NCBI GenBank assembly: GCA_036630325.1
Contig: CP142728.1
Span: 496,001 to 560,000 of the forward strand
DNA: 64,000 bases
Source: Vairimorpha necatrix
Lineage: Eukaryota
Reading direction: 5' to 3'
Position 1 is the stretch's first letter. Each line of letters starts with the position of its first letter. The position numbers and the translations under genes were made by a program. Shown here in pieces: positions 14,468-51,977 of the stretch. The notes under the pieces were generated by a model. It saw only the letters and a list, made by a program, of their open reading frames with translations. It made no database searches and was not told the DNA's origin.

Positions 14468-14987
14468 GGGGTTGAATCCACATTATTAAATTTATAATGC
14501 CTGAGTTTTTATGATTCAATGAAAAACAAAGAGAAAATTTTATGTAAACTAACAGTTTAAGCTATAACGCAAAAATAAAGCAGAATTTTACTATTTTCTT
14601 TGTTGTTTAAACAAACAAATTGTAGATTTAGAAGATAACTAAAAATTTATATATTTACTGTTATATATTTTGATAATTTTTACCCATCATTATGATAAAT
14701 AATTACATGGGGGCGATACCAAATCGAGAGTCAACAAGTGATGGCTGTGGTCAAGAGGCCCGAATAATGTTACAAGAAATCAAAAGAATAGTTTATAAGC
14801 TAGAGTTGGATGGATAGATGAGTCTATATGGAAGGCAAGAATTTATGAAATGGGTTCGGAAGAAGTAAAGAACTTTATGGTAGAAAGAATTATATAAGAA
14901 GATAATTGGTCCTTAATTATTAAAGAAATAGAAAAGGAGGTTAGAAAGGACGAATTAAAAAAGAAGGAAGAAGAAGACGAAAGTAAG

Positions 14988-17046: not shown

Positions 17047-18158
17047 GGTGCATCTTTAGTAACGTGCCGGAAGGTAACACCCCCCCTTACAGACAAAAAT
17101 TTAACAAAATTTTGAAAAAAAATAAGAAAACGATATAAAAATGCTTATTTAATTCAGTAGTTTAGATAAAAGATCAACAAAACCCTTATAGAAGTCTCCC
17201 ATATCATCTTCTCGAAGCATAAATTTCCTATACATAAATTCATCGAGCCATGTATCTATCTCCGACCGTTTTACTCCATGTTCTTTGGTCATTTCAGACT
17301 TAAGTTGAGACCATACGTTCTCAATATTATTTGTATGAATACCATCAGGAGATAAAAAACCTATAGAATGATTAACAACTTGATGACTTAGACATAAATT
17401 TTCTGCCACCCCAGGATAACTAGGATGACCATCGCTATGTAAAACCGAACCTACACAAATTCTTCCCTCTAGAGCAGCAGTAAGGCACTCAATGGTTCTA
17501 TTCTCTACCCTCGTAATGTAGAAGTTTGAAGGATTTTGAGCATCTATTATGCCCAAAATCCAAACGGTGTCCCTTATAAAGTCGTCCGAAGAGGTAGGAG
17601 ATCTTATTTTACCCCTTCTGCATATAACAGACTCATCTACTTGAACGACTTGCCCGGGTCCTCCGATTATAATTCTATTCTTTAGCAAATCTTTATAGAT
17701 CTTTCTGAGGCTGCTTTTTACGGCAGAGATTGTAGCTGTTGAAACGCCCAATCTTGCCATCAACTGAAAGTAAGAATATCTGCATAATATTCCAAATACA
17801 AGGTCACAGAATGTATGAAGAGGAACCTTGCAGCCTTTATTCACAACCAACCGCGCACTGCATTTGTAGTTCGAACAGCGATATGCTACTCTTGTAACGA
17901 TTTCTTCCTTGACAGGACCCAATCTCATGTTACATCCACATTTGGAACATGATTTTTGCTCCTTCAGCACTTCTAAGTCAATTAAAGCTTCTAAACAAGT
18001 GTCAACGTTATAAAAAAGCCTTTGTATATTCACAAGTTTAATTTTTGTGCTTTTCTTTAGTAACGTGCCGGAGTTTTCTAAATCGATGTTGTCCATTTTA
18101 GGGGTAAAAAAATATTTTTTAAAAAAACAAAATCCCGGCACGTTACTAAAGATGCACC
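17047..18158 (-). mobile_element. Merlin (IS1595/ISXO2-like) DNA transposon, apparently intact, nested in the gypsy integrase
   Basis: Perfect 24-bp TIR GGTGCATCTTTAGTAACGTGCCGG. 8-bp TSD CGTTATTT (17039-17046, 18159-18166). Removing the insertion restores integrase TTRYL-EKVALDL. Confidence 0.95.
17149..18096 (-). CDS. Merlin transposase (315 aa)
   Basis: ATG follows CCCCTAAA. Zn-ribbon CSKC...CSNYKC; GGPGQVVQVDES, WILG, LHSDGHPSY, VNHS and HTNNIENVWSQLK. Confidence 0.92.
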   Translation of the reverse strand: MDNIDLENSGTLLKKSTKIKLVNIQRLFYNVDTCLEALIDLEVLKEQKSCSKCGCNMRLGPVKEEIVTRVAYRCSNYKCSARLVVNKGCKVPLHTFCDLVFGILCRYSYFQLMARLGVSTATISAVKSSLRKIYKDLLKNRIIIGGPGQVVQVDESVICRRGKIRSPTSSDDFIRDTVWILGIIDAQNPSNFYITRVENRTIECLTAALEGRICVGSVLHSDGHPSYPGVAENLCLSHQVVNHSIGFLSPDGIHTNNIENVWSQLKSEMTKEHGVKRSEIDTWLDEFMYRKFMLREDDMGDFYKGFVDLLSKLLN

Positions 18159-18166
18159 CGTTATTT

Positions 18167-18881
18167 AGAAAAGGTTGCTTTGGATCTCATTGATTTTAGA
18201 GACGCAGGTAAATATGTATTGGTTGCGATAGATTATTTCACTCGAAGAGTATGGGGCACGGTAATGGAGAACAAAACTGGAATGAATGTGACAGAATTTT
18301 TAAGTAAGTTGTGTGAACAAGGAAAAAAGCCCGAAGAGATTATAACGGATAATGGGCGAGAATTTTATAATGAGGGGTTTAGAGAGTTGTGCAACAGACT
18401 AGAAATTAAACATAGGAAAGTAAGTGTCGAATCGCACAGGAGTAATGGCAGAGCTGAGAGGGTTATAGGTACGCTGCGAGAGAGCATTCTGAAGACCTAA
18501 GAAGGTACATTTGCAGAGAAGGTCATGGGAAGCATTGAAAAATATAATATGAGTTATTACACGGCACTAAAATGTACACCAATAGAAGCGACAGAGGATA
18601 AAACTGGACATGTAATGATTGAAAATAGCCCACAGGGGAAATATGGAAAACTGTTTAACGAGGGGAAACGGTAAAAATTTAAAGTAGGTGAGTACGTGAG
18701 AGTAGCTAAGAAGGAAAACTTGAAAGGTGCGGATAAATATTTGAAAGGTAGGTTTTTAGAGAGTGGGAAAGTTATAGAGAGATGTGGCAATGATTCTTAT
18801 ATAGTTAAGTTAGTAAATGGAAGATATATAAAGAAAAGGCACTATAATCTAAAAAGTCTGCTTGGGTTAAGGATAAAGTGA
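18167..18881 (+). pseudogene. Integrase core and C-terminus of gypsy element 1
   Basis: LDLID, IITDNGREF, SNGRAER; internal stops; homologous to 50892-51896. Confidence 0.88.
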
Positions 18882-20071: not shown

Positions 20072-20803
20072 TTATACTCCTACTACTCTAAGTGAAAACT
20101 TTTTCTTGGAATCCGAAGGGAGTTCTCCTATGTAGACCTTTTTAACATCATCTGGTATAAATGGCTTGACTGTAGTGGTTGAATAAAATACAACAAATCT
20201 TCGACTTCGTGATACGTATTCTTTATTGTTCAATTCGTGCAAGAATGTATATAGTTTATTGTATTTCTCTTGATTGAATAACTGTCTGATCGTGTTGGGA
20301 AAATTTTCATCAAAAAATAGTTGAATGCTATTGTAAATTTTTTGAAGAATATTTTCAGATTCTTTGCAATGTTTCATACTTAATAATCTTAAAATCAACT
20401 CATAACTATGATAAGCTAACGAATTGATAAAAGATAAATCATTTAAACGGTTAGAATCGTACGAAGTTCTTAGATAAATATGCCTCAAACAACGTTCAAA
20501 TTCCGATAATAATTTAGGCTTTATCATCACATTATTTTTAAATCTTAATTTTTCAATCTTTTTCTTAATTTCTGGATGCTTTATAATAGTCTTAAAGTAA
20601 TTACTTACTATTTTATAGTATTGATCAAGATCAATATTGGAATATTCCCCCTTTAAAGAATTTACAAAATTTAGGTCTTGAGATATATCTTTCCAATTAT
20701 CGATTTTTCCATCAATGTTGAAACTGTTTAATGCATTTATACTTTCCTCAGAACCATTTATTTCGGAACAAGATTGTAGTATGAAATGCGGAAAGGATAT
20801 CAT
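20072..20803 (-). CDS. Putative secreted protein, family A (RSRR cleavage site)
   Basis: Starts GCCCTTATG. Shares LSFI.SL.Y.SY, I.QLFN...YNK, RSxR and DDVKKV with 10179-10874. Confidence 0.8.
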   Translation of the reverse strand: MISFPHFILQSCSEINGSEESINALNSFNIDGKIDNWKDISQDLNFVNSLKGEYSNIDLDQYYKIVSNYFKTIIKHPEIKKKIEKLRFKNNVMIKPKLLSEFERCLRHIYLRTSYDSNRLNDLSFINSLAYHSYELILRLLSMKHCKESENILQKIYNSIQLFFDENFPNTIRQLFNQEKYNKLYTFLHELNNKEYVSRSRRFVVFYSTTTVKPFIPDDVKKVYIGELPSDSKKKFSLRVVGV

Positions 20804-21659
20804 AAGGGCAGGTGGAAATTTGTTTGATTTTTGAAATTAACACAGTAAAACGTAATATATTTAAACAATGTAGGTATTATGAAAGAGAAGATAATGAACG
20901 CAAAATACTAAAAAATGTTTATTTTAATGTATAATAATTTCTTAAGTGATGATGTGGATATGCGTAGTCGCTCCATCACCAGGCACAGAATAAATTGGAC
21001 ACGTCTATCCATCTGTAGTCTATATTTTATATATATCTCAGAAAAAGACGCTTAAACTACAATCTGAACAACATACAACAAATCATATAGAGAGAATTCT
21101 ACATAAAAGAGTTTTAAAGACTTAGACCAATTATACACGGCGAGTCATCTACGTATTTGTTACTGATATCAAATTTATCAAAAAAGTCTCACTTTATATC
21201 CGTTTTTTCATAAAAAAAAATGAAAATAGTATTTAACAAAAATGGCGAAGGAAACTTATTGTTAATGATAGTTAAATCATGTCTCATATATATAAATATT
21301 TGTTATTTTTTTGCTTTCGTTTTTCTCTTCGCCATATACACATCTACCTTAGCCAATCTCAACATCCTTCCAGTGGCTTGATCTAAAGAATTTCGCCCCG
21401 TCTTCGCCGCATAGACCAATGATATCTTATGATGTTTTTCTTTGGTTTTGAATTTGATATAATTTTCGTACTAAAAAAAGGCCTTTTAAATATTCTAAGG
21501 ATATGAAAAAATGTATCTTCCATGTTTTAACATATATTAGAATCCAATTAGTGATTAGTTTTTAAGTATTTAAAATTTTTTTATTTAAAAATAAAAAAAA
21601 ATGCCTTCTTTGGCATAATATGATATCTTACTTACTAATTACTTTATACAGGATACGCT

Positions 21660-25550: not shown

Positions 25551-26105
25551 TTATCAAAAAATTTTAACATAGAAATGTTAGTTTAAAATTATTCTCATAC
25601 AAATATGTATATTGTAAATGAATTACAACCAGAGGGCCGGGGTAAGTGTCTTAAGATTTGTGATAAAGATAGAAATAAAATATATTGCGAACGGAATTGC
25701 ACTGTTTTTATAGGCCTAATCGACCACCCTGAACACATTTAAGCGACCTATATATTATCCATTTTTCTCCGAAATACAACCACACTACGTGCTGTTTAGA
25801 AAACTGACTAAATTTTTGCATCAATACATACCTCGTCAGTTTGTCATGTGCACATTAATTATTTTGAATAGCAAAGATAATTAACAATAAATACAAAGAA
25901 TATAAAGATATAATACTTGTCAAATTCTATTTACAACGGATTAATATTTTGCAGAAAACCACATATGTGGCAGACTAGAGAATCTTGGTGAGATAATAAA
26001 ACTAAAGAATTATAATCGGGAATTAAAAATACAATATAAAATCTTCAATGTTAAAAACAATATACATTTTTATCTTTAATTTAAATTAAATTCGAAAATA
26101 CCCCA

Positions 26106-27293
26106 ATGTTGCCATTTATTTTGTTATTAAAATGTTCAAATACAATATTTAAAGACTACGATACAAAATTGTCAAATCAATCACAACTTAAAAATGCTGC
26201 TAATGGTTGCGAATATTTTGATTTCGAGGCGATTTTGAGAGAAGGCAAAAATGAAACCTTAGATTTTGAAATTGTCGAGGATATTATGGAATTTTATAAA
26301 AATTATAACCATTTCTCCGAAAATATCAAATTAAATCAAGAAAATAATAAAACTACGAAAGAAGAGCCGGTAAATTATACAACCAATTGTCCGAAAATTG
26401 GGGAGTGTATGAATACAAACAATATGATTCTTCAACATAACAATGAAACTTTTCAGAAAAATATGCAGGACAAAGATGAAATTATGAAAAACGAAGAGAA
26501 TTTTGAACAAATACATGTCATTTCCCAAGTAAATAACATAACGAAACAAGTAAACTTGGATACACCAATGAATATATTTTTGCCTTTCACAAGTGGAACT
26601 AATTTAGAAAACGATAGAGACAATATTCTTTTTGTAAATCAACAATCTCCATATCACGTAATCGATAAAAACAAAACAAACAACATGAATGATAATATGT
26701 CGTTATATTATCAATACACAGAAATGAAAAATAGTCTCCAAACAGTTAAACAACAAGCTGAAAGGTACTTATTATCTAGACCTACTCAAAAAATCCATAT
26801 TCATAATATTAGAAAATATTATGAAAAAATCGAAGCCAAGAGGCGATCTATAAGAAATAAAAATTGTTGTTATAGAGAAAAATTAATGGATCCAATAACA
26901 TATATGCTCAGTACGCTTCATCACCTCGATTTATCAGATAAAGACATAATAAACGATTCTTTGAATTTCGTTATGAACATTATCAATTTTTTAATGCCTA
27001 AATTGTATTATTTGACTATAGAAACTGATTCCCTACAATTGAAATATTTATTATATTTAGCCATTTGGAAAATAGAAATAGTGACACAAACTTTAAATTT
27101 ACCAAAATTTATTGAAAAAATTTCCAAACATTTTAATATTAACATACAAAATAAAGGTGAAAATGAAAAACAAATAATTTACTATTTGGAGATTCTAAAA
27201 AGGAGATTTGTCGGCTTTTATAAAGATAAGCTGTGTTTGCATATGTATGAATTATGTGATTTAATCACAGAAATGCATGTGTCGAATGAATAA
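26106..27293 (+). CDS. Putative secreted protein, family B
   Basis: Starts ACCCCAATG. Signal-like MLPFILLLKCS. FDF...VEDIME.Y.N motif shared with 47629-48827. Confidence 0.8.
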   Translation: MLPFILLLKCSNTIFKDYDTKLSNQSQLKNAANGCEYFDFEAILREGKNETLDFEIVEDIMEFYKNYNHFSENIKLNQENNKTTKEEPVNYTTNCPKIGECMNTNNMILQHNNETFQKNMQDKDEIMKNEENFEQIHVISQVNNITKQVNLDTPMNIFLPFTSGTNLENDRDNILFVNQQSPYHVIDKNKTNNMNDNMSLYYQYTEMKNSLQTVKQQAERYLLSRPTQKIHIHNIRKYYEKIEAKRRSIRNKNCCYREKLMDPITYMLSTLHHLDLSDKDIINDSLNFVMNIINFLMPKLYYLTIETDSLQLKYLLYLAIWKIEIVTQTLNLPKFIEKISKHFNINIQNKGENEKQIIYYLEILKRRFVGFYKDKLCLHMYELCDLITEMHVSNE

Positions 27294-29262: not shown

Positions 29263-30275
29263 GGCTAAAGTGAGCATTAGCTACAAAAAATCGATATAGG
29301 GTTTTTTTGTTTTTTTTTGCCCCTTTTTTTTAAAAATGGAAGAAAGAAAATGATGAGGAAGGAACAAAAATAAAAACTAGAATTAATATTTTAATAAAGC
29401 TTCAAACACTGAAGTTGTGGAGTTTATTTGGATCATATATCTAAATAAATAAAGTTTAGTGCTATTCGATGATCTGTTTCTATTTGGTATAGAATGGTTT
29501 TGAGATAACCAATTGCCTTCTATGGTATTGGTATGTACTCCTGTATTCGAATCTCTAAATGTAATGTATGATTAACCATATGATGTTGGTTAAATATTGT
29601 ATTTAAAGAATAATACGCTCTCCACATATCGCTATATATAATACTGCTTCTACTTACATATTTTAAAAGAAGTTCAGTAAGTGTTCTTTTGTCTCTTTTC
29701 TTGATATATACTACTATGATTCTACGTTGGATGGTATGTTCAACCATTCCAAAACACCAAAATCCTTTTACTAACTTCCCCCTATTGTATTTATTCTTCC
29801 CAATCTTAGTCTCATCAATTTCCACTATAGTATTATCGCCTCCATTAGTCCCTATACTAGATAAATACTTATCATAAAGACTCATTTCTTTTAACTTTTT
29901 TAGCACGGAAGATATTGAAGGTTTAGTACAACCTAAGACTTGAGAAATGGACTTACGTGTATAACCTAGAATCCATAAATTTAGTATTTGTAATATTTTG
30001 ATGTGATTTAGCCTAGAATCCTGAAATAAAGTTTCATTCCAAATTGAAATTGTGTTTTTACATGAGCTTAATGGACACCTTATGAGACTTCTTTGCTTCA
30101 TTTTTTTTGATTACAGACGCTACATTTTTTATTTTTTTTCTTAATTATTAGATCATTATATATGATCTCCAATTCTTCTCTTGTCCGAATTCTTTCTTCC
30201 ATTTTTAAAAAAAAGGGGCAAAAAAAAACAAAAAAACCCTATATCGATTTTTTGTAGCTAATGCTTACTTTAGCC
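29263..30275 (-). mobile_element. Merlin DNA transposon 2 with ~85-bp TIRs
   Basis: TIR begins GGCTAAAGT(G/A)AGCATTAGCTACAAAAAATCGATATAGGG. 8-bp TSD CAAATTTC (29255-29262, 30276-30283). Confidence 0.93.
29383..30202 (-). pseudogene. Merlin transposase with two frameshifts
   Basis: MEERIRTREE...CSVC, then VEIDETK, KYNRG, WCFGMVE, IYSDMWRAY, VNH, and GVHTNTIEGNW in another frame. Confidence 0.85.
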
Positions 30276-31205: not shown

Positions 31206-32346
31206 TATGTAAATTTTTGTTTGTTTTTTTTGCGCTCTGTACGCTTCGATTTCGAAACAGATATAAAATAAAAAATTCAATATTTATGATATTAAGGAAG
31301 CTAAAGTAGAAATTAGCCTTAGCATTTACTAAATGTTGCTCTTTATGCATTATTTATGTTTTAAAATCGTTCTAAAACGAGACTTTTTTGCTATTTTGTT
31401 TCTAACGATTAAAGTCATAATTAAAAAAATGAGTTTTCGTGACAATAATAAAAATGCAAAGTTTTATATTTTACATGTTGATGTTTTGAAAGACAAATGT
31501 TTAACAATGACAAACATAAAATATTAAATCCCAACTTTAAAATTTATGCGTTCAAAGAAATATGTGATTTATCAATATTTTCAATCAAGTTTTAACTTGA
31601 ACACGTGCTTTGATAAAAAAGTATATCAGAATATTTTGTTTTGTCGCTTTGCACCATTAATATTATGTGCAAAGAATAAATAAATATTTTATTGAACTTT
31701 CCGTAGTCCTCTATAAATTGTTTTACATATCATATATATAAAAGAATTTTATTTAATTTTTTACCCCTAAAACTCAAAAAAAGAGAAAATTTAAAATGGT
31801 AAAATTTTTGTTTTAAAACAAAATTAAATGCTTTCACTGTATTTTATAGACAATTTTAGACCAGATACGTTATTTACATTTTATTTATAAATCATTTTTG
31901 AAATGCTTAGAAATATGATTTTCTCCTTTTTAATTTCTTCCTTTTAGAGAATGAAAACAAAAACAATATGAAACAAAATGTAGAAAAAATTTGTTACTAA
32001 TGTGTGAAATTAACTCAATTGGATTAAAATTTGTTACTGAATTAACGTTACCACTGCTATGTTGATTCAATAATAATACTTAACTTCTAAAAATCACATT
32101 TGCTCCTTTTTAATTCTTCCTACCAGAAATGGAAAATCAAAAATCAAAAATCAAAACAAGAAACAAACATTAAAAGGATGATTTACAAACATTAGAAATT
32201 TATCAACTGACTTAAAAACTCAATTAATTAATATTTAGACTAATATCAATGCTATTTATTAAAAAATCATAGTCTCATTTTTGTTTTCTTCTTTCCCAAA
32301 ATGGAATTTCAAAAACTATAAATACTTTTTTTTTTTTACCCCCATT

Positions 32347-35300
32347 ATGTTTACGAAAAATCAAACAAATTGCGATTTTAGTGAACAACCAAAAGCAACT
32401 ATCACTATCTCTCAGGAGATAAGTTATAATACAGAAAATGACAATGTTATTTTCTATGGGGCCAATGCCTCTGTACATAACACAAAAAATAAAAAAACAA
32501 ATGTCGGAGAAACAAAAAAAAGGAATTTTATATTCAGTTTCTCTGGCGAAAACAAAATACCATCCAACCCAACAAACAACACAGAAAAAACAGCTAGATT
32601 AACTGATAACACAAATATGGAAACTTTGACGGAGATTCTAGATATAGCTTGCAGAATCAGTACTAGAAACCATGCCGAACATTATTGTGGAGATCTCAAA
32701 GAAGAATGTGGCTTTTGTGGTGCATTACATTTTGCAGGAGAAGCAAGCAGTAATGGATTATACAAAAGCTGCTGTCATTTTGGGAAAGTTAAATTACAAA
32801 GAACAAGAGACTTCCCAGATGACATTAAGAATTTATTTATTGGGAAAGACAAAAACGCAAAGAACTTTAAAGAAAATATTAGATCCTACAATGCTGCTCT
32901 TTCTTTTGCTTCTCTTGGTGCTCAAATAGAAACTGTATTCAATGGACCATATGTATTCAAAATACATGGACAAGTGTATCATAACACTTATAATATAAAT
33001 AATATGGAATCTAATACACCAAAGAAATATGCCCAATTATATGTAGTGGATAGTGATATGGCAAACTCCCAAAGAATGCAAAATCCATCTAATAGAAATT
33101 GTGATATTAATATCATGAGCAAATTAGATGGATTTATAAGATCAGCCAATCCATATTCCAATGCGTATAAAAATATGTCTGAAATAATAAAGGAGCAAAA
33201 GGAAATGGGGAAAGAAGTTAAAGACATTTCTATGGTCTTTAATAAAAATTTAGAAAGAGATCAGAGAAGGTATAATGCTCCCTCTACAAGTGAAATCGCA
33301 ATGATTTTCACTGATCCAAATGGAGAACCCCCATTTGAGAGGGACATTAAAGTATATAGCAAGGGTTTTAATTCTGATAATTTACACTTGGATATTGTAA
33401 GTCCCCATCTAGATCCAATGACATATACTCTCTTCTATCCACATGGGGAAGCTGGATGGAATGCAAATTTGAGGCTAAAGTCTTATCTAGGAGAGGCACA
33501 GAAGATATCTTTGTTACAATACAAAGTAGCACAGATATCCATAAGAAAAGATAGTTTCAACCCTTTGCTTTATGGAGGAAAGTTGTTTCAACAATGGATT
33601 GTAGATTCATATCTACAAGTAGAAGCAAATAATTTAAACTTCATAAAATTAAATCAAAAGAAGTTGAGGGTAGATCTTTACAAAGGTTTGGTAGATTATG
33701 TAAATAATGGGTCAGAAAGTTCTGCCAAGCCCGTGATCTTACCATCAAGTTTTCAAGGATCTCCAAGAAATATGAGAGAGAGATACCATGATGCAATGTC
33801 AATTGTAAGAAATTTCGGCAAGCCCGATCTTTTTATAACTATGACTTGCAATCCCAAATGGAAGGAGATTAATGAGAATCTATTTGAGGGACAGACAGCA
33901 GTTGATAGACCAGATTTGGTAGCAAAGGTCTTTAACTTAAAGTTGAAAAGTATGATGGAAGAGATTTTGGCAGGAAGAGTGTTTGGGGAAGTCGTGGCTC
34001 ATCTCTATTCTATTGAGTTTCAAAAACGTGGACTTCCTCATGCACATATATTGATAATGTTAAAGGACAAGATTCGGGATGAAAATATGATAGATAAGTT
34101 TGTAAGTGCAGAAATACCATCGCCCATGGAAAATGAAGTGTTACACACCTGTGTAACAAAACATATGATTCATGGACCATGTGGACTAAGTAACTTGACA
34201 AGTCCATGTATGGAAAATGGTCTCTGCACTAAGGAATATCCTAAGGAACATAATACTGAAACAAGGATCAATAAAGACGGATATCCTGAGTACAGACGAT
34301 CTAGAGGGGCCGAGTACAATGTAAGGGGCAACATTGTTACTAATGCTAACGTGGTCCCTTATAATGCTTATCTTCTTGAAAAATACAATTGTCATATCAA
34401 TGTAGAAGTTTGTACTTCTATCAAGTCAGTAAAGTATATTTTTAAGTATATTTACAAGGGATTTGATTGTGCTGAAATGAGAATAACTGACAACAATGAA
34501 ATTGATCATTTTGTGAATTCCAGATATGTCTCAGCACCAGAGGCTACCTGGAGATTAATGGAATACAAGATGCATGGAAGATCTCATAAGATCCATAGAC
34601 TTCCTGTGCATCTTCCACAAGAACAATTGATCACTTTCGAAGAAGGCAGAGAAGAGGAAGCCGTTAGATTGTCCGATCTTAGACAGACTCCTCTTTTAGC
34701 CTACTTCAAATTGAATGAAGTTGATGAAGGAGCACATCGATTTTCGTATAGTGAGATACCCTATCACTATACATATAAAAGGGGAGAATGGATTAGGAGA
34801 AAGAATAAGTATAGTAAGATAATTACTAGACTTTATTCTGTATCTCCAATAGAGAAGGAAAGATTTAGCCTCAGAGTTCTATTGATCAATGTAAAGGGGG
34901 TTAAGTCATATGAGGATTTGAGAACTGTAAATGGTGTAGTTTACAGTTCTTTCGCAGAGGCGGTGGAAGAAAGAGGACTTCTTCAAGATGATAAAGAATG
35001 GGAAAGGGCTTTGGATGAGGCTGTATCAACCGAGTCCCCATCAATAATAAGAGCATTGTTTGGATATATTTGTGCTTTCAATAAGCCTAAAAATACCAAA
35101 GAACTCTTTGAGAAGTATCTTGGAGATATGTCTGAAGATCTAGATCAGAATAGTAGAGACGAAATATTAAGTAGATTAAAAGATATAGTTAATGCTCATG
35201 GATGGAGCTTAAATGCTCTGGGTTTAGATGAGCCGATTAACTATATCAAGAATGAAAGAGCCGTCTTTGATAATGAACAAGATCTAGATCAGATGATATC

Positions 35301-36651
35301 CTCTTTGAATGAAAACCAGAGAAATGCCTTTGATATAATTACAGATAATATAGATAAAAGAGGCAATTTATTCTTTTTAGATGGACCAGCTGGATCAGGA
35401 AAGACATATTTATATAATGTCCTGATCGAGTATCTAAGTAAGAGTAAAAAATCTTCAATACAGATGGCAACCACAGGTATTGCTGCAGATTTATTAAAGG
35501 ATGGAAGAACAATGCATAGTTGTATAAAACTTCCTGTTCCTTTGACAGAGACCAGCGTATCTAGACTAAAGCAAAATACTCCAGAAGCAGAGAGAATAAT
35601 AAAGGCCTCATTATTGCTGATAGATGAAGTTTCGATGATGTCAAAACATGCATTGGACGCAATAGATGAGGTGCTTAAAAGACTCTGTAATAATAATGAT
35701 ATCTTTGGAGGGAAGACCTTATTGTTGGGTGGTGACTTTAGACAGACATCAACCATTGTAATGAAGGGTACTCCAAATGATATCATCGAGAACTCATTAA
35801 TTAGTTCAAGACTTTGGGTACATGTCTGTGTACTAAAGCTTGAAACGAACATGAGATCTTATAATCAATTGGAGTTTAATAAGTGGTTGTTAGATATAGG
35901 TGAGGGGCGTACTAGAGATAGTAAAGGATGTGTGGAGATACCCAAAGAATATCTTGAAGAAGGGGACATAGTCGATAGCATTTTTGGAACAAACAAAATT
36001 GAAGCAGGTGATGATTCTTTGTTTGATAAGATTATCTTAACGAGCAAAAATGAACATGCAAATGAATTGAATGCCAAAGTGTTAAACCTTCTCAAAGGAC
36101 CTTCGAGGGTATATGTGAGTTCTGATGCTATAGAATCAGAGGATATCGAAGAACAACTTAGATTTCCTCTTGAGTTCTTGAACATGCAACAGCCATCAGG
36201 ACTTCCTCCACATAAGTTAGTATTGAAGATAGGGGCAATAGTGATGTTGTTACGCAATATTGATCCTAAGAATGGATTATTAAATGGGACCAGATTGAAA
36301 ATAAAAGGTCTTAAAGATAATTACATCTTAGGTGAAATAATAACAGGAAGGGGAAGGGGCACCCTTGCTGTTATACCAAAGATAGACATGATGCCAAGTG
36401 ACACTCTTCTTCCGTTTGTACTTAAAAGAAGACAGTTTCCTGCGGTATTGTCATATGCGATGACAATACATAAAGCACAGGGACAGTCTTTTGACAAAGT
36501 GGGAGTGTATTTGCCTGAGGATGTATTTTCTCATGGTCAATTATACGTAGCTTTGTCAAGAGTGAAGAAGAGTGAAAACTTGAGAGTCAAGTTGGGGGGA
36601 AACAGGGGCAATGTCAAAAATGTAGTTCTACGTGAACTAATTGGCCCATAA
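32347..36651 (+). CDS. Helitron Rep/PIF1 helicase transposase (1434 aa from the first ATG)
   Basis: Starts CCCCCATTATG. Rep motifs FITMTCNP, EFQKRGLPHAH and KYIFKYIYKG. SF1 helicase motifs GPAGSGKT, DEVSM, GDFRQ, TIHKAQGQS and HGQLYVALSRV. Confidence 0.96.
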   Translation: MFTKNQTNCDFSEQPKATITISQEISYNTENDNVIFYGANASVHNTKNKKTNVGETKKRNFIFSFSGENKIPSNPTNNTEKTARLTDNTNMETLTEILDIACRISTRNHAEHYCGDLKEECGFCGALHFAGEASSNGLYKSCCHFGKVKLQRTRDFPDDIKNLFIGKDKNAKNFKENIRSYNAALSFASLGAQIETVFNGPYVFKIHGQVYHNTYNINNMESNTPKKYAQLYVVDSDMANSQRMQNPSNRNCDINIMSKLDGFIRSANPYSNAYKNMSEIIKEQKEMGKEVKDISMVFNKNLERDQRRYNAPSTSEIAMIFTDPNGEPPFERDIKVYSKGFNSDNLHLDIVSPHLDPMTYTLFYPHGEAGWNANLRLKSYLGEAQKISLLQYKVAQISIRKDSFNPLLYGGKLFQQWIVDSYLQVEANNLNFIKLNQKKLRVDLYKGLVDYVNNGSESSAKPVILPSSFQGSPRNMRERYHDAMSIVRNFGKPDLFITMTCNPKWKEINENLFEGQTAVDRPDLVAKVFNLKLKSMMEEILAGRVFGEVVAHLYSIEFQKRGLPHAHILIMLKDKIRDENMIDKFVSAEIPSPMENEVLHTCVTKHMIHGPCGLSNLTSPCMENGLCTKEYPKEHNTETRINKDGYPEYRRSRGAEYNVRGNIVTNANVVPYNAYLLEKYNCHINVEVCTSIKSVKYIFKYIYKGFDCAEMRITDNNEIDHFVNSRYVSAPEATWRLMEYKMHGRSHKIHRLPVHLPQEQLITFEEGREEEAVRLSDLRQTPLLAYFKLNEVDEGAHRFSYSEIPYHYTYKRGEWIRRKNKYSKIITRLYSVSPIEKERFSLRVLLINVKGVKSYEDLRTVNGVVYSSFAEAVEERGLLQDDKEWERALDEAVSTESPSIIRALFGYICAFNKPKNTKELFEKYLGDMSEDLDQNSRDEILSRLKDIVNAHGWSLNALGLDEPINYIKNERAVFDNEQDLDQMISSLNENQRNAFDIITDNIDKRGNLFFLDGPAGSGKTYLYNVLIEYLSKSKKSSIQMATTGIAADLLKDGRTMHSCIKLPVPLTETSVSRLKQNTPEAERIIKASLLLIDEVSMMSKHALDAIDEVLKRLCNNNDIFGGKTLLLGGDFRQTSTIVMKGTPNDIIENSLISSRLWVHVCVLKLETNMRSYNQLEFNKWLLDIGEGRTRDSKGCVEIPKEYLEEGDIVDSIFGTNKIEAGDDSLFDKIILTSKNEHANELNAKVLNLLKGPSRVYVSSDAIESEDIEEQLRFPLEFLNMQQPSGLPPHKLVLKIGAIVMLLRNIDPKNGLLNGTRLKIKGLKDNYILGEIITGRGRGTLAVIPKIDMMPSDTLLPFVLKRRQFPAVLSYAMTIHKAQGQSFDKVGVYLPEDVFSHGQLYVALSRVKKSENLRVKLGGNRGNVKNVVLRELIGP

Positions 36652-36667
36652 GAGCCAAGAGATGAAG

Positions 36668-36771
36668 AAATGCGCCGTGAGCGTACAAGCACTATGCCAT
36701 TTTTCTTCCAATAAGGATGAGATAAAAGATGATAAAATGCGCCGTGAGCGTACAAAAACTATGCCATTTTT
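36668..36771. repeat. Two-copy ~37-bp direct repeat in the Helitron 3' region
   Basis: AAATGCGCCGTGAGCGTACAA(GC/AA)ACTATGCCATTTTT at 36668 and 36735. Confidence 0.85.
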
Positions 36772-36860
36772 TTAAAGAATAAATATAATGTGATAAAATT
36801 AAAACATGTACCCATGCAAACACAAACAACCCGTTCTCAGAACGGGTGTGCATACGCTAG

Positions 36861-37382
36861 TCATATATATAAAAGAATTTTATTTAATTTTTTACCCCTC
36901 TTTTTTGTGACTTTGGAATTTCTAAACTATATATATTAGGCTTTCTATGTTATTTAAATAGCATATTTAGATTAGATGTTACAATTTGATAATTTTAAGT
37001 GTGTATACTATATATTAATGCATTTTTATTTTTTTTATTATTTTTTTAAAACTCAGTTCCAAAATATCGTCAGAATCGTTTTTTAGAATTTATTTAACCC
37101 TTCTACGAAAAATTGTAAAAATAATTGCCAAATAAAGATTTTGAATATAAGTGTCAAAAATTGAGCTTATAAGTCCCCAAAATTATTTCAATATGACTCA
37201 TAAGTGTTTTTAACTCAACTTTACTCCTTATATGTTACTAAAAAGTATTTTCGAAAAAGATGTCTTCATCCTGTCAAATTCAATCATCCCAAAATGGAAA
37301 CTTAAAAAAATTAAAAGAGGAAATACATATTTAAAAACTAAACATCTTCATCCCGTTTTTAAAACGGGAAAGCATACGCTAG
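36861..37382 (+). mobile_element. Non-autonomous Helitron unit 1 (522 bp)
   Basis: First 39 nt identical to the autonomous 5' end. Hairpin TCCCGTTTTTAAAACGGGA. Ends GCATACGCTAG. Confidence 0.9.
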
Positions 37383-37903
37383 TCATATATATAAAAGAAT
37401 TTTATTTAATTTTTTACCCCTCTTTTTTTGTCAATTTGAAATTTCCACACTATATATTCTAGGCTTTCTATGTTATTTAAATATAAAATATAGATTTATT
37501 GCTTTAATTTGATTATTCTAAGTGTGTATATTATTAGTTAATACTTTTTAATTTTTATTATTATTTTTGTAAAACTTAGTTCCAAAATATCGTCAGAATC
37601 GTTTTTTAGAATTTATTTGACCCTTCTAGAAAAAATTCACAAAAACATTAACCAAAAAAAAAGTTGAATATAAGTGTCAAAAATTGAGCATAGAAGTTCC
37701 CAAAATTATCTCATTATAATTATTAAATGTTTATAGCTCAACTTTACTCCTTATAGGTTACTAAAAAGTATTTTTAAAAAACATTTTTTCTTATTTTAAA
37801 TTCATTATCTTAGAATGGAAACTTAACAAAATTTACCGAAGAGGGACATATCATGAAACAAAACATTTAGATCCCGTTTTCAAAACGGGAAAGCATACGC
37901 TAG
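37383..37903 (+). mobile_element. Non-autonomous Helitron unit 2 (521 bp)
   Basis: Diverged colinear copy of unit 1. Hairpin TCCCGTTTTCAAAACGGGA. Ends CTAG, followed by T. Confidence 0.9.
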
Positions 37904-38667
37904 TCAATAAATAAATTAAAATAATGTGGTTTTTTTCTGACAAACATTATTAGTCCTAAAATGATTTTTATACTAAATTTTATGAGGTGTGTGCGAGATA
38001 ATACGAATAAATACATAGTGAGTAATAATAATGAGATCAAAATAATAATTACCTATAATAACTCCTTCTCTAGCCAAAGTACAACAAAGTCTTGTGATAA
38101 ACATATTGAAAATATTCGACATACTAGAATTTCTTGTGATGCTATAGAATGATGCATTAAAATGAAATTTAAGGTAGAAAACAATACACAAAATATCCAA
38201 CTTATAATTTATGAGATAAAAAAGTATATATCCGCATGTGGAAATATAAGTTTGCAATTTATTGTCGTGATATCACTAAAATCAATTACAAAAAGTAAAT
38301 TGGTCAAATATATGAACAAAGACAAAAAATTGATGTACACATTACTAAATAACATATCCGAATAACACGAATAAAATGCACAAACCTATAATACTTATCT
38401 AAACAAAGGTCGACAAGAATAAAAGCAAAATTGAAGATTAAAAAGCATACAACGAGCTTTAGGACGTTTTTTTTTGATTTTAAAGAGCATTTTCGGCCTT
38501 TTCTATCGATTTATGAATCGAAAAAAATTTTTACTAATGAAAAAAATAGAAATTATAATATAAATGTAAATATTTTCTATGTTCAAGTATATATCAATTT
38601 TAGAGACATTGGGAAACCCCCGCTTTGCGTTATATAATCTTAAGTATATATTTATTGTGGCGCGCGA

Positions 38668-38977: not shown

Positions 38978-39180
38978 CCTTTTGGAAAGCCCAGTCTAAG
39001 TTAAATCTTTTTTAAATAAATAAACGCACTTGTTTGGATTCAAACCTACGGACCATGTGAAAGAATCAAGCAAGCATACCACTCGACCATGGCATACTAG
39101 ATAAAACGAAATAAAAAATAAGAAAATACTTACATAATGACAATTGATAAATAAAAAGATTTTTTTTTATCCCCTTAAAA

Positions 39181-40479
39181 ATGATTCTTCCTCCCAGAAA
39201 TGCTAGTGAATACAGTAATTTAAAATTAGTTTTACTAGGCAGGGACAATGAAGTTGTTTTAGAAAAGCAACAAAAAAAACGGTTGAAACAAAAAGCTGGT
39301 AATTACCTTCTTATAGATGGGGCGCTATATTTAAGGGACGAGGCTAATGGGAACCACCTCAAGGTTTTTCATAGTGACCAGCTTGAGGCCATGGAAGTGG
39401 AATGTAGAGCTTTCCACCAGTTTCATCACAGGGGCGTTAACCTATTCGAAGCATCATGCAATAAGGTTTTTTTTAAAATTCCTAGGGACATTATAAGAAA
39501 AATCGTTTCCGAATGCATCACATGTGGACAATCACAACCGTTAAAAAATAAAGAGCGCCAAGTACATATTACGGCCTCTAAACCGATGGAACGAATTATG
39601 ATCGATTTAATAGATATTACACGCTATAAAAGGTTTAACGATGGGTATTGTTGGATTTTAACAATAATAGATGTGTATTCTAAGTTTGCCTGGGCCTTTC
39701 CATTGAAAAGTAAAACAGGTGATGAGGTTACAAAAAACCTTAAATTTTTATTTTACAATATGACTGGTCCGCCCAAGATCCTTCAAAGCGATAATGGAAA
39801 GTAATTCTGCAATTCCTATATAAAAACTTTTGTTCCGACCTTTTTATTGTTCGAAAACATAGTAGGCCCCGTCACCCACAATCAAACGGGCAAATAGAAA
39901 GGTTTAACCAAACTTTAACGCGAACAATACAAAAACATGTATTTGAAGAAAGCTTGTTAGCCGTTGACCATGCTAAAACCGAAGAAGAAAAGGAATGGCT
40001 TAAACATCTAGATAAAGTAGTTTACAACTACAATTTGGCCAAACATAGTGCGACAAAGCAGGTCCCGTTTAGTTTATTCTTAAAAATACCAGGATTTAAT
40101 TCTGTTTATACGCAAGATGAGATTGAGTCTATAGATGATAGCTTAAAAGAAATTGAAATGATACTCGAGACAAAAAATAAAAGAGATTTGTCGAATAGTG
40201 TTTTTAATGAGCAAACTGAAACTGGTTCAGTTGATCCAAATTACCTTGCAAGAATGGATCGTCATTCATTAGTTCATATCAAAATATACTTTTGAAATTG
40301 GTGACAAAGTCATTGTAGCTAAAGACTTTGATAATAATATCAAAACAAAAAAACTAAAATTATCTTCATTTTTTTCTAAAGAAGTTAAGATTATAGAAAT
40401 TCTCTCAAACAACAGAGTGAAATGTGAAACTGAAGAAGGAACTCAAATTTTCCCTATGTCGAGGCTTAAAAAACTTTAA
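39181..40479 (+). pseudogene. Ginger-like integrase/transposase, disrupted
   Basis: Starts CCCCTTAAAAATG. HHCC motif (H...HRG...CITC), MIDLID, IIDVYSKF, LQSDNGK*F (TAA in place of E) and RPRHPQSNGQIERFNQT. Frameshifts near 39830 and 40290. Confidence 0.88.
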
Positions 40480-42130: not shown

Positions 42131-42226
42131 ACAAAACATTATTATTATTAATTTAGAAATCCAATTCTACAAATTTTACTAATATTAAAAAGACTCATTT
42201 AAAACTTCATTTCTTTTATACCCCAA

Positions 42227-43638
42227 ATGTTAAAGATCTTTAACTCTTTGACTAAAAAATTGGAAGAATTTAAACCACGAGATCCACACAATGTAAAAAT
42301 TTACATTTGTGGGCCAACTGTCTATGACCACAGTCACATTGGTCATGCCCGTACTTACGTGTCCTTTGATGTGATAAGAAACATTTTAGAAAAATATTAC
42401 AATTATAATGTGACATTTGTAATGAATATTACAGATATAGATGATAAAATAATCAATAAAAGTAAAGAAGACGGTGTTTCTATAAGTGAAATTACTACCA
42501 AATATACAAAACTGTTTTTAGACGATATGTCTCTACTTAATGTAAGAAGACCTACAGTCTTAACAAAAGTAACTGAATACATTGAAAAAATTAAAGAATA
42601 TGTTCAAGTCTTGGTAGACAACAAATACGCCTACGAAAGTAACGGGAGTATTTATTTTGATGTGAACGAATACAAGAAAAATTTTCAATATCCCATTTTT
42701 AGAGACGAGTCTGCTAATAATAGCGTCGACGAAAAAAATCTTGTAGATAAGAAATCTCATATGGATTTTGCCTTATGGAAAAAAGGAAGCGGGACAGATT
42801 TAAATGACGAAGGCAGACCAGGTTGGCATATCGAATGTAGTGTTATGTCTAATGATGTACTTGGCGATTTTATTGATATTCACGCGGGAGGCGTAGATTT
42901 AAAATTTCCACATCATGAAAATGAAATAGCGCAATGTCAAGCTCGGCATCAGAAAGAACCCTGGGTCGCGTATTTTATGCATACTGGTCATTTAAATATT
43001 AACGGTCTAAAAATGTCAAAATCTCTTAAAAATTTTACAACTATAAAATCAATTTTAGAAAGATGCACTCCGATTCAACTTAGAATTCTCTTTTTACATC
43101 ATCAGTGGAATAAAGATATGAACTACGAAGAGAGTCAATTAAAATTTGCAGAAAATGTAGAGAAAAAGTTATATAATTTTTTAATGTATGTAGAAAGTAG
43201 CACAGATACTACAAGTAAATACACCGAAATAGACAATGAGGTACTAAGTTTTATTAGTAAAACAAATAAAATAGTAGATGAATCTTTTTCTAATAACTTT
43301 GATACGCCGTCAGTCATAAGGCTTTATTAGAATTAGTTACATTTACGAATACAAGAAGCGGATTGATAAACATTTACACTCTTTATCAAGTTAGAGATTT
43401 CCTAAGGAGAATTATGGATATTTTAGGAATTAGTAAGAAAGAGAAAACTAGAGACGATGATAGTAAAAAGTTAGCCGAACTAATTAACAATTTCAGAAAT
43501 GATGTAAGAAAGGCAGCGAAAAACAATGAGAATAAAAAGAAATTATTCGAAATATGTGATGACGTGAGGGATAAACTAAAAGATATTGGATATATAATTG
43601 AGGATTGTAATTTAGAGTCAATGATTAAGAAATTATAA
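42227..43638 (+). CDS. CARS: Cysteine--tRNA ligase (one-base frameshift near 43319)
   Basis: CGPTVYDHSHIGHAR, GRPGWHIECS, DIHAGGVDLKFPHHENE and KMSKS. The anticodon-binding tail CDDVRDKL is in the second frame. Confidence 0.95.
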
Positions 43639-46749: not shown

Positions 46750-47628
46750 TTAATAAATGTTTAAGTAATACAATATGTATTTATAATTTTCTATATAAAA
46801 AATTTTTAATGCAAAATTTTAAGAAAAAATTATTGTATAAGTACATGTTATAAAAAAATTAAACTCTAATGTATAAATATCGTCGTCAATTGAAGTTAAT
46901 GCATGTTTCTTTTGTCTTTATATTTTTGAATATTTTTTCGTTAAATTTTGTAATATAATTTAGTTAATACATTATTTCTATAATAAATACGTAAATTTTT
47001 GTATATAAATACTATGTAGCAAATTACATTTTATAAATAAGAAATTTTTAAATAAAATACATAAGTCAAGTACAACATAAAAACATTTTTTATCGATCGA
47101 AAGTGAATATTATAGTCATATTTATAAAAATGCTTCGAACAATTTTATGTTTCAAAAAAAACGAATTAATTATATGGGAAATAAATTTCATGATATTCTG
47201 GATGCTAAAATTGAATTTCTTGATAATTTCAAAATTAAAACTCTTCATTTTAAGTTATAAAACGAACATTTATAGATAATAAATATCCATTTTTCTAATA
47301 TATATATGTGTAAAAGGAAGTAAATGGCAATAAAAACTATGTCAGTAATTTTATCGTATCAGGGCGATAAATAAACATAAGAATTTTTCATTAACTTATT
47401 TTATCATAAAAAACACAGCTATAATCCCCTGGTATATTTAATTTTTTTGCTCCTTTATATGTCTGTAAAAGTATTTAATGGTGTATTATAAGGAGAAAAA
47501 AATTAACGATAAAACCAGATAACCTTATAGATCTTTTAGAATTTATCCATCAATTAAATCAAAAAAAAACCGTCAATTTATGTTAAATGATTTTTTTATC
47601 ATAATAAAAAATTTTTATGATTTATCCC

Positions 47629-48827
47629 ATGTTTTTATATATTTTTCTGCTAAAATGTTCAAACGACATATTTAATACATATAATACTAAAATATTTCAA
47701 CAATCACTTAACTATAATCAAATGGATATCAGCACAGAGTTTGATTTTGATACAATTATGGCAGAGAATTATAATGAAAATGAAGAGAATGAGCATGTTG
47801 AGGATATAATGGAATACTATGAAAATCATAAGAGATTAACTATTAACGAAAGTTGCTATTATGAAAACAAAACAACTACAGAAGAATTGCAAATAAAAAA
47901 CTTAGTTAATTCTTTGAAATGCGGAGAGAACTTTCCACAAAACAAAATATCTCAAACAAATGAAAAATTAATGCTTAAAGTTTCTGAGGATATGTCGGAA
48001 ATTTGTAAAAATGAAGAGAATTCTCATCAGGACAGATCTACTTTTATATGCAATAATGAAATTATACAGCAAAATGCAGAGGAAACGGATAATGACAATG
48101 AAAATTTTATAGATAAAAGTATTTTAACAAATGATAAATCTTTTTATGACAACAATTTTCAACAACTTCTTAGGAACGAATGCAATCAAAACAATACAGG
48201 TGAAAAAGATTATAATTCATTACTAGAAAAAAAATAATGGAAATAGAACGAAAATTTAGCGAAATTAAGCAACAAGAACAGGAATATCTATCACGTAATC
48301 TTATACCAACTAGAAATTTAGGTTGTTATTTTTTTAATGCTAATAAGGAAATATTACAAATAAGAAAATCTATTTCTAATTTTAATTCAAGGTACAAAAG
48401 GGATATGATAGAAAAGACAAAATCAATTGTAGAAAAAATCGAAAAAATCAATTTTATTGGTAATTATGGTATTATTGATGCTCTAAAATTTATTGGAGAA
48501 GTAAGCGAATATATCTCACTGAAAAAAATAAACTTACACATAAAGTATGATTTTTTACAGGTAAAATATGATTTGGAGCTATTAAATTGGAAAATTATCA
48601 AAATAACAGATACTATCAATGTGCCAGATTTAATCGAATTAATATATAGGATTTTTTATTACAAATTTGAAAATCACAGACCCGCTATATACGAAATTTT
48701 AAATGACATATATACTCTAGGAAATAAATTAATTGTCTTTTATAATAAAGGCAAAGATAATGCGTGTAAACGTATAAAGAAATTATGTGATTGTATCACA
48801 AAAATGGACAGAAATGCCAATAAATAG
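47629..48827 (+). CDS. Putative secreted protein, family B paralog (frameshift in an A-run near 48230)
   Basis: TCCCATG start; MFLYIFLLKCSN. The two track ORFs align with the N- and C-halves of 26106-27293 (LQVKYDLELLNWKI vs LQLKYLLYLAIWKI). Confidence 0.75.
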
Positions 48828-49360: not shown

Positions 49361-51977
49361 TGTTATATTCTGTAATATGATTGACCCCAATTTATGATAA
49401 ATAAAGACATGGCGAACACAAGAAACAAAAAGTCAGCAAGTGAGGACTGTGGTCAGGTGATCAGAATGATATGGAATGAGTTTAGTATTATTATGTATGG
49501 ATTGAGAGAACAGGAAGGGATTGAATTGAAAGATATTTATAGTTTGGGTTCAGAGGATCTGAGAAATGTAAGATAAAAACACAAGAGGGTGCTAAAGTAG
49601 TGAAGAAAGGACAGTGCATACCTCAAGCATTAATGGAGGATACTGAAAATTTTATTAAAGGACTGGAAAAGAGGAAGGTAATAAGAAGGTCGAATTCTAA
49701 ATGGAGAAATCCAATAAGAGCGTTATGAAAGCCAGATGGCGGAATAAGGCTAGTGAGTAATTTGATGGCCTTGAATGATTTGGTTAAAAAAGATTTTTAT
49801 GAGTTAGTTAATATAAGAGACATAATTAAGAAAACACAGGGTTCAGAATATTTTACGGTAATTGACTTAAAGGAAGGATTTTAAAGTATTGAGATCGACG
49901 AGGCAGATGAACATAAAACTGCATTTAAATTTAATAGAAGGGTTTATGAATGGAATAGTATGGTTATGGGATACAAGAATTCCCCGCAGATTTTACAAAG
50001 AATAATAAATAAATTGTTTGAGAGACACTTGGGAAAAGGAATAGAAGTGTATATGGATGATATTGTTATACATGCAGCGACGAGAGGGAAGCACGATATA
50101 TTGTTAGGAGAAGCACTTAGGAAGTTGGAAGATAATAAGATGAGGATTAATATTAATAAGGTACAGTTATGCTTGAAGGAGGTAAAGCTATTTGGGGTTA
50201 CACTGAATGATTTAGAGATAACACCGTCTGAAATAAAACAAAACGAAGCGTTAGAATTCCCAGAGCCACAAAACGTGTCAGAAGTAAGGAGATTTTTAGG
50301 ATTAACAGGATGTTATAGAAGCTTTATAAAAAATTATGCGAATTTAACGGTACATTTGACCGACAGTTTGAAGGGTAAGAACGAATGGAAATGGACAGAA
50401 AATATGAAAGTTGAATTGTTAAGTTGAAAAGAAAGAGTACAGACAATGGGAAAGTTGAAGATAGTTAATTATGAAAAGGAGTTTTTATTGAGAACAGATG
50501 CGTCAGACATAGGAACGGGCGCGGTATTAATGCAAAAGAATGACGAAGAATAGTGGGTGCCGGTACATTGGGCTTTGTAAAAGTTTACTCCCACGGAATC
50601 AAGATACGGAATAAGCGAGAAAGAGATGTATGCGGTCTACTGGGGAATCAAAAAGTTCGAATATGAATTAAAAGGTCGTAAATTTAAAGTTGAAACAGAC
50701 CATAAAGCTTTGATAGAAATCAGGAGAAAGCCACGATTCGATATAATAGGATTAATAGGTGGATAGAAAAGATTTAAGAGTTCGATTTTTACAATTGAGT
50801 ACATGAAGCTAGATATAATGGTAGTGGCCGATGCGTTAAGTAGAGCGCCTGTTGAAGAGACTGAGAAAGAGGAAATATAAAGAAAAGAACAGTGAAACAA
50901 ATTGAAGGAAAAGAGAAGAAACATACAGTATATGAAGATGGAAAGGAATACTGGGTCTTTGATAGTGGTATAAGAGCAGAGATACCAAAGGAGGAAAATA
51001 GGGCAAAGTTAATAATGGAATATCACGAAAATGGAGGTCATCGTAGTGTTGGAAGTGTTTATTATGCGATGAAGAAGCTTTACTATTGGTTAGGGATGAA
51101 GTCAGAGATTTATAATGAGTTATTGAAGTGTGAAAGATGCCAAATTTATGATAGGAAGAAGTCGGGCGGATGTGATTTTATTAGTACCAGTAGATATTTA
51201 GAGAAAGTAGCTTTTGATTTGATTGAATTTCGCGACGAATGTAGGTACGTTTTGATTGGTGTTGATTACCATACTAGACTGATTTGGGGAATGAGCATGA
51301 AGGAAAAAAAGTCTCAGAATGTTGCTTGGTTTATAGAAAGTTTATGTAGGAACGGAAACCGACCAGAGGAAATAATAACCGATATTGGCAAGGAATTTGT
51401 TAACGAGGATCTTAGAATATTATGTAGAAGATTAGATATTGCTCACAGGAAGATAAGCATAGAAAGCCACCGTAGTAATGGACGTGTAGAGAGAGTAATA
51501 GGAACATTGAGAGAAGCTATTTTGAAAATCAAAGGCGATGATTTTGACGATAAGGTTATGAGAGCGATTGATTTGTATAAAAATAGTTATCACAGTGGGA
51601 TAGATTGTACACCTAAAGAGGCAATTATAGATACTAGTGGAAAAGTTATGATAGAAAATGATCCTGAAGGAAGATACAGTAAGAAGTTTGTTAAATGGAA
51701 GAGAGAAAGGTTTTACGGGAATCAGCAAGTACGAGTAGCGAAAAAAGAAAATTTGAAGGGATGTACTAAATATGAAAAAGGACGATTTCTGGAGAGGGGG
51801 AAAATTTACGCGATTTGTGGAGGAGATTCTTATATTGTACGATTGGAAACAGGACGGCTGGTGAAGAAAAGACATTATGATTTAAAGGGGGGTTGAGTAA
51901 GTATGAGATTAACCGTCTTGGAGGGGGATGTTATATTTTGTGATATGATTGGCCCCAATTTATGATAAATAAAGACA
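49361..51977 (+). mobile_element. Ty3/gypsy LTR retrotransposon 2 with 49-bp LTRs (gag internally deleted, degenerate)
   Basis: LTRs 49361-49409 and 51929-51977 (3 mismatches). TSD TATTA. PBS-like TGGCG. PPT GGAGGGGGA. YMDD, LRTDAS and integrase SNGRVER. Several stops. Confidence 0.93.

Follow-up and report, generated by a model that had tools for sequence, protein, structure and literature searches.

Helitrons that differ in sequence and yet lie end to end have been described before. In maize, a 2008 study found unlike Helitrons meeting at CTAG|TC, the 'G/T junction', and concluded that they were 'consecutive insertions, not tandem repeats'; two routes to such a product were proposed, insertion at the A|T at the 5' end of a resident element or at the G|T at its 3' end (PMC2267711). 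Where two such Helitrons abut in maize, some lines have the pair, others a single element and others none, which shows that the two inserted independently (PMC2267711). Abutting Helitrons have also been reported in bats (PMC4778049, PMC5876387). In Nosema and other microsporidia, Helitron open reading frames (ORFs) and Lep1-like non-autonomous Helitrons have been recorded, with their nearest relatives in arthropods (PMC4202319, PMC4038834, PMC5012567). Here we describe a mixed array of three Helitrons, one of them apparently autonomous and still functional, in a 64,000-nt stretch of the microsporidian Vairimorpha necatrix genome (contig CP142728.1, positions 496,001 to 560,000; hereafter the window, in whose numbering all coordinates are given).

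Layout, termini and insertion site of the array

The array occupies 6,174 bp of the forward strand and is made up of three units in the same orientation. Unit A (31730–36860, 5,131 bp) has the 5'-TC...CTAG-3' ends of a canonical Helitron and contains the ORF of a Rep-helicase transposase (RepHel). Unit B (36861–37382, 522 bp) and unit C (37383–37903, 521 bp) are non-autonomous Helitrons. A first-pass annotation of this DNA had described three units with a common 39-nt start, a hairpin of their own and a shared terminal sequence, and we recovered each of these features where it had placed them. The 39-nt left terminal sequence of A (31730–31768; TCATATAT...ACCCCT) matched the window at 31730, 36861 and 37383, always on the forward strand and with 0 mismatches; no further window match was found at ≤3 mismatches, and 0 were expected from 100 shuffles. 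The terminal sequence GCATACGCTAG was found three times in the window where 0.15 occurrences were expected; its copies end at 36860, 37382 and 37903.

The 3' terminus of A (36850–36860) is joined directly to the TC of B. Both internal joints read ...GCATACGCTAG|TCATATAT..., that is, CTAG|TC with zero bases in between, and the A–B and B–C junctions have an identical stretch of ~57 nt in common. The block as a whole is bordered by a host A at 31729 and a host T at 37904, where the flank reads TCAATAAAT... The two ends do not pair as terminal inverted repeats in the list of inverted repeats. It had been claimed that the units are joined without an intervening base and that the block sits between host A and T; the sequence confirmed both points, and the empty-site contig described below also confirmed the second. 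A fourth, truncated unit starting at 37904 was also considered and rejected. The TCA found there looks like a 5' start, but it is present in the empty-site contig and is thus host sequence, and no extra match to the 5' end was found in the window at ≤3 mismatches.

For each unit we folded the 40 nt at the 3' end and compared the result with 200 shuffles. Each unit formed an 8-bp stem with a 3-nt loop that stops 13 nt before the terminus: ACCCGTTC-TCA-GAACGGGT in A (36829–36847), and the corresponding hairpins in B (37351–37369) and C (37872–37890). The folding energies were −8.6 kcal/mol for A and −9.3 kcal/mol for both B and C (z = −3.4, −6.0 and −6.0), and 0 of 200 shuffles were as stable in any of the three cases. 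The inner pair of the stem is C-G in A and T-A in B and C, a compensatory change that had been noticed earlier; we found a second one at the outer pair, which is A-T in A and T-A in B and C. These changes are suggestive support for the hairpin, of a non-statistical kind since just two hairpin types are compared.

To the window region 31400–38300 we aligned contigs, built from 31-letter words, of three public sequencing runs (X1, X2 and X3). A 513-nt contig from X1 covered 31615–31732, continued with 7 letters and resumed at 37913–38300, thereby skipping 6,180 nt. Since TCA opens both the block and the host flank behind it, the contig can be read as ...ACATA|TCAATAAATA..., a block-free version of the site in which an A/T run is longer by one A. 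Compared with the window, the flanks show 1 differing letter in 118 nt on one side and 10 differing letters and 2 gaps in 388 nt on the other (~2–3%). The contig thus represents an empty site, and with respect to the allele or isolate it comes from, all 6,174 bp of the block were inserted. It bears out the outer borders and also the A|T target. Nothing is duplicated at the empty site ...ACATA|TCAATAAAT..., and insertion at A|T without a target-site duplication holds for the block taken as one.

The transposase of unit A and its non-autonomous partners

The RepHel gene of unit A (32347–36651, forward strand) comprises 1,434 codons from the first ATG and lies in an open frame of 1,462 codons (32263–36651) with no stop and no intron. 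Pfam searches identified Helitron_like_N (2.3e-61), PIF1 (1.7e-55) and Pif1_2B (2.1e-17), and none of the 11 Pfam families matched was an endonuclease domain. The best match among solved structures was the bat transposase Helraiser (7LCC; E = 0, 1237 bits), with query residues 138–1447 aligned to chain residues 114–1471, which is nearly the full length of the protein. The HUH motif GLPHAHIL is identical in the two proteins (GLPHAHI at frame residue 590). KYIFKYIYKG (residue 724) aligns on KYLFKYIYKG, which brings its two tyrosines onto Helraiser Y727 and Y731. GPAGSGKT (residue 1041) aligns on Walker A, and its lysine falls at the position of K1068Q in the crystallised Helraiser mutant. The roles of the HUH motif, the catalytic tyrosines and the Walker A lysine have been described for Helraiser (PMC5876387). 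Because the frame is open, the domains are present and the catalytic residues are conserved with respect to Helraiser, RepHel looks intact, and unit A is apparently an autonomous, functional element with an intact enzyme.

The proteins closest to RepHel, at 42–65% identity, come from animal Helitrons or are unnamed ones from metagenomes. The best named one comes from Papilio xuthus (65% identity over 75% of the query part), and no close copy was present in the protein collection searched.

We also examined how the gene begins and ends. Ahead of the first ATG of RepHel stand a run of T and a run of C, TTTTTTTTTTTTACCCCCATT (32326–32349). When 45 nt upstream of 11 long ORFs in the window were inspected, a CCC at ≤15 nt before the first ATG was found in 8 of the 11, RepHel among them. 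A start-associated motif consisting of a T run plus CCC has been described in Nosema ceranae (PMC2685015). The signal upstream of RepHel matches that motif, and the transposon gene thus appears, as judged from its letters, to bear a host-type expression signal. Separately, the tail of the 39-nt start (TTTTTTACCCCT; 31752–31768, 36883–36899 and 37405–37421) resembles the host start-associated motif; a promoter-like signal, a binding site for the transposase and chance are all conceivable explanations. Right after the RepHel stop, in the 3' untranslated part of A, lie two 53-nt imperfect direct repeats on the forward strand (36652–36771), 87% alike and 67 nt apart.

The features of the array place it among canonical Helitrons (the Helitron1 group). 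RepHel combines the HUH motif, two tyrosines and a Pif1-like SF1B helicase; A, B and C all have 5'-TC and 3'-CTRR ends without terminal inverted repeats; and an 8-bp hairpin stem precedes the 3' end in 3 of 3 units. Helentrons, or Helitron2 elements, carry an endonuclease domain after the helicase and have terminal inverted repeats. These features were not found here, where an endonuclease domain is missing from the Pfam matches and TC...CTAG ends lie at A|T. As in the maize case, unlike units are joined at CTAG|TC with no host base, an arrangement of a kind already known, that of abutting heterologous Helitrons. The interpretation offered by the first-pass annotation stands in part, namely for canonical units, an autonomous A with non-autonomous B and C, a mixed array and A|T borders, but not as regards newness, since the maize work of 2008 and the bat elements precede it.

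Aligned over 523 columns, B and C have 82.8% identity; they are collinear along their whole length, with a period of 521–523 nt, and neither has any coding capacity. The match between A and B is limited to nt 1–39, and that between A and C to nt 1–39 and the last 31 nt (84%). The small units had been said to be diverged from each other and to resemble A at their ends only, as these values bear out. Such a relation is the usual one between an autonomous Helitron and its non-autonomous partners, and B-type and C-type elements are probably mobilised by the RepHel that A or its sister copies encode.

Contig depth gave a hint that units of the B/C type are abundant. Summed over contigs, the depth in X2 was ~24,000–60,000 for B/C vs 0–410 for the RepHel body, and in X1 it was ~300–980 vs 48–184, values that reflect depth and not copy number. 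A similar pattern was seen within A, whose 5' non-coding 600 nt (31631–32323) had a depth of ~4,300–7,300 in X2 vs 0–410 for the coding body, again as depth and not copy number; this hints at abundant other non-autonomous derivatives that keep the 5' part of A. In X2, which is the run of another organism, RepHel pieces were present (32000–36650) with the flanks left without cover, and X3, a freshwater metagenome, contained a few RepHel pieces of 102–225 nt with 0–2 differences. From these pieces it follows that the same Helitron family exists beyond this locus, possibly also outside V. necatrix.

Formation of the array

Since the units are unlike, with B and C 83% alike and A unrelated inside, the array is not a concatemer of one element. 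In a rolling-circle concatemer the units would be copies of one monomer, and here they are not; the earlier statement that the array is not a simple rolling-circle overrun is upheld by this heterogeneity. A more restricted version would have the B–C pair alone produced by rolling-circle over-replication or by a local tandem duplication, followed by divergence in place. The collinearity of B and C and their common 521–523-nt period are what such an event would leave, and the literature attributes tandem Helitron arrays to rolling-circle replication (PMC5876387, PMC12001565). However, B and C differ by 17%, compared with ~2–3% between the flanks and the empty allele, from which we conclude that B and C were already different on arrival and are not the products of a local duplication that diverged at this site. 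Single B/C-like units are moreover very abundant in X1 and X2, as measured by contig depth and not by copy number, so two members of the family were readily available, and A is unrelated inside. We therefore regard a duplication in place as very improbable.

An origin of the junctions from mis-joined repeats during assembly must be weighed as well. The ~57-nt stretch that is identical at both junctions could invite such an error, and no bridging piece was present among the contigs listed. On the other side, the units are distinct enough (17% between B and C, with A unique) for long reads to separate them, the borders of the block are independently confirmed by the empty-site contig, and the window contains no N. 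An assembly artefact consequently has only a slight probability.

We next consider chance. Across the window, 11.9% of positions are A|T, which corresponds to ~1.8 million sites per 15-Mb haplotype. Even with thousands of resident elements, an exact hit on a resident end in the same orientation would by our estimate be expected in about 1 in 1,000 insertions, and two such hits are needed, so abutment by chance is very unlikely. Taken together, the implausibility of chance and the want of a single monomer leave either insertion aimed at the ends of resident elements or units that were joined elsewhere and arrived together.

Of these, we favour with moderate confidence the reading in which the array grew by successive insertions targeted to the ends of resident copies. 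The simplest route makes use of the A|T that each resident Helitron re-creates where its 5' T follows the host A. A newcomer could integrate canonically at that A|T, its CTAG then abutting the TC of the resident, and the product would be host-A|TC...CTAG|TC-resident, with the A|T adjoining the very sequence that the enzyme presumably recognises and nicks. By this 5'-end route C would have arrived first, then B and then A; an alternative route, insertion at the CTAG|T at the 3' end of the resident, would give the reverse order. Both the targeting of resident ends and the order of arrival are inferred. By analogy, the maize lines that carry both, one or neither abutting Helitron may serve as a precedent for stepwise growth. 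In principle, each internal CTAG|TC, being identical in sequence form to a Helitron circle joint, would be able to act both as a terminator and as a start.

Several observations weigh against stepwise growth. Three separate hits at one site within ~3% flank divergence are demanding, and the parts of the literature examined do not demonstrate that a Helitron transposase aims at resident ends. An intermediate allele, with C alone or with B–C but without A, was not seen in the three runs, whose contigs, assembled from words of 31 letters, would scarcely get across shared ends of 39–57 nt. The one other state observed, an entirely empty site, fits a single composite insertion equally well. None of the contig pieces listed spans an internal junction, and public scans for Helitron ends were blank. 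In these scans, the hairpin-plus-terminus pattern matched 23 loci in metagenome contigs, of which 0 of 23 were Helitron ends, the matches lying in GC-rich or unrelated contexts with none followed by a 5' end; the same pattern had 0 matches in viral contigs, and the 38-nt 5' end had 0 in contigs of prokaryote genomes and 0 in viral contigs.

A separate observation was made on an X2 contig in which a joint links 37906 to 31729. Along this contig, TCA TCATCATC A separates a Helitron 3' end from the 5' end that comes next. The two elements are in the same orientation, 12 nt apart in a TCA repeat, and each has the canonical A and T neighbours. This near-touching pair is a weak hint in favour of end-targeted insertion. 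The insertion site in the window is likewise A|TCA.

The fully empty allele brings in a second explanation, a composite that inserted in one step. Here A, B and C would have been joined already at a donor locus, and the transposase, starting from the 5' end of A, would have run past the terminators of A and B to that of C and delivered 6,174 bp into ACATA|TCAAT. This agrees with two findings: in the single other allele observed, the block is missing precisely and in its entirety, and the outer borders of the block are canonical, with TC...CTAG placed between A and T. Furthermore, terminator bypass is known from Helraiser, and abutting bat Helitrons then transposed as composites, with empty sites (PMC4778049). 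Bypass by Helraiser increases when the hairpin is missing (PMC4778049), whereas both terminators that would have been passed here keep intact, stable hairpins and perfect CTAG ends. A prior abutting event would still be required, so that the question is moved and not answered. We consider one-step insertion a real possibility, if a less probable one than growth by successive insertions.

The form of the internal joints suggests a third route, in which joining precedes integration. The 3' CTAG of one excised strand would be linked to the 5' TC of another, yielding a mixed multimeric circle that is opened at one joint and integrated. The joints have exactly the form of a circle joint, which Helraiser makes and cleaves with precision (PMC4778049, PMC5876387), and the identical ends on all three units mean that one enzyme could serve them all. 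Mixed circles are, on the other hand, not reported in the parts of the literature examined, and three different elements would have to be excised in the same nucleus simultaneously. This route seems improbable to us.

Growth by end-targeted insertion also has a stronger form, which we put forward as a speculation that is probably not correct as a whole. Resident ends might be sequence-specific integration hot spots, at which the transposase carries out its circle-closing and circle-opening reactions in trans on chromosomal ends, so that elements with the same ends would gather into mixed arrays. If this were true, an autonomous element would become physically tied to its non-autonomous dependants. 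The array would then offer several starts and terminators, with up to six nested mobile units, and so a way for new composite Helitrons to arise in a parasite whose genome is compact.

Genomic setting and comparison with known systems

The window has a G+C content of 25–34% and contains intron-less host genes amid remnants of retrotransposons and DDE transposases. A cysteinyl-tRNA synthetase ORF (42203–43330) is 99% identical to that of V. necatrix, followed by V. ceranae at 79% and other microsporidia, as expected of DNA from V. necatrix or from a very close relative. The V. necatrix genome has been described as tetraploid, with four pseudo-haplotypes that are 96% alike, a G+C content of 28.3%, ~50% repeats and a 15-Mb haplotype (PMC10759460); in the main text of that paper, as far as it was available, the word Helitron does not occur. 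Retrotransposon remnants were found at 14898–16753 (RVT_1 and RNase H), 49885–51896 (RVT_1 and integrase) and 39151–40295 (a split integrase). An ISXO2-like DDE transposase domain is present in two ORFs on the reverse strand, 17149–18186 and 29520–30110, the second lying 1.6 kb upstream of the Helitron block. In addition, two pairs of ORFs without Pfam matches look paralogous by eye, 10179–10925 and 20072–20836 (both reverse strand) and 26085–27293 and 47608–48827 (both forward strand). The members of each pair have similar lengths and common motifs, and the second pair has LLLKCSN.IF near the start.

Judged on its sequence, the locus provides a complete and apparently still functional microsporidian Helitron, with ends, a hairpin, an open transposase gene, a host-type start signal and a polymorphic insertion with its empty site. 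As a mixed array of three units, it is a clean case for the old question of how head-to-tail Helitrons originate. What is new is the instance, three units including one apparently active autonomous element in a microsporidian; no new mechanism and no new kind of element are revealed. The four diverged pseudo-haplotypes could reveal intermediate states and so tell stepwise from one-step formation.

The closest counterpart is the maize arrangement, with which the array shares unlike elements, the CTAG|TC joint without a host base and the same two possible routes (PMC2267711). It differs from maize in having three units, one of them with an apparently intact autonomous coding capacity, and a microsporidian host, and in that only the full and the empty states were seen. 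Homogeneous tandem Helitron arrays (PMC5876387; in Xenopus, PMC12001565) are likewise head-to-tail with precise end-to-end joints, but they repeat one monomer, whereas the units here are 83% alike or unrelated. Compared with reports from Nosema and other microsporidia (PMC4202319, PMC4038834, PMC5012567), there are Helitron-type genes and small non-autonomous Helitrons in close relatives of the host; those reports, in the parts drawn on here, merely catalogue Helitron-like ORFs, and complete elements with ends, or arrays, are not described there. With the bat Helibat and Helraiser elements (PMC4778049, PMC5876387) the array has in common the transposase architecture (~1,300 residues aligned), the catalytic residues, the TC...hairpin...CTAG ends and the A|T target, as well as abutting copies with head-to-tail junctions, and terminator bypass has been described in bats. 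The terminal sequences of the two systems are unrelated. Furthermore, the bat elements are reconstructed fossils, whereas unit A, known from sequence alone, is open-framed and polymorphic.

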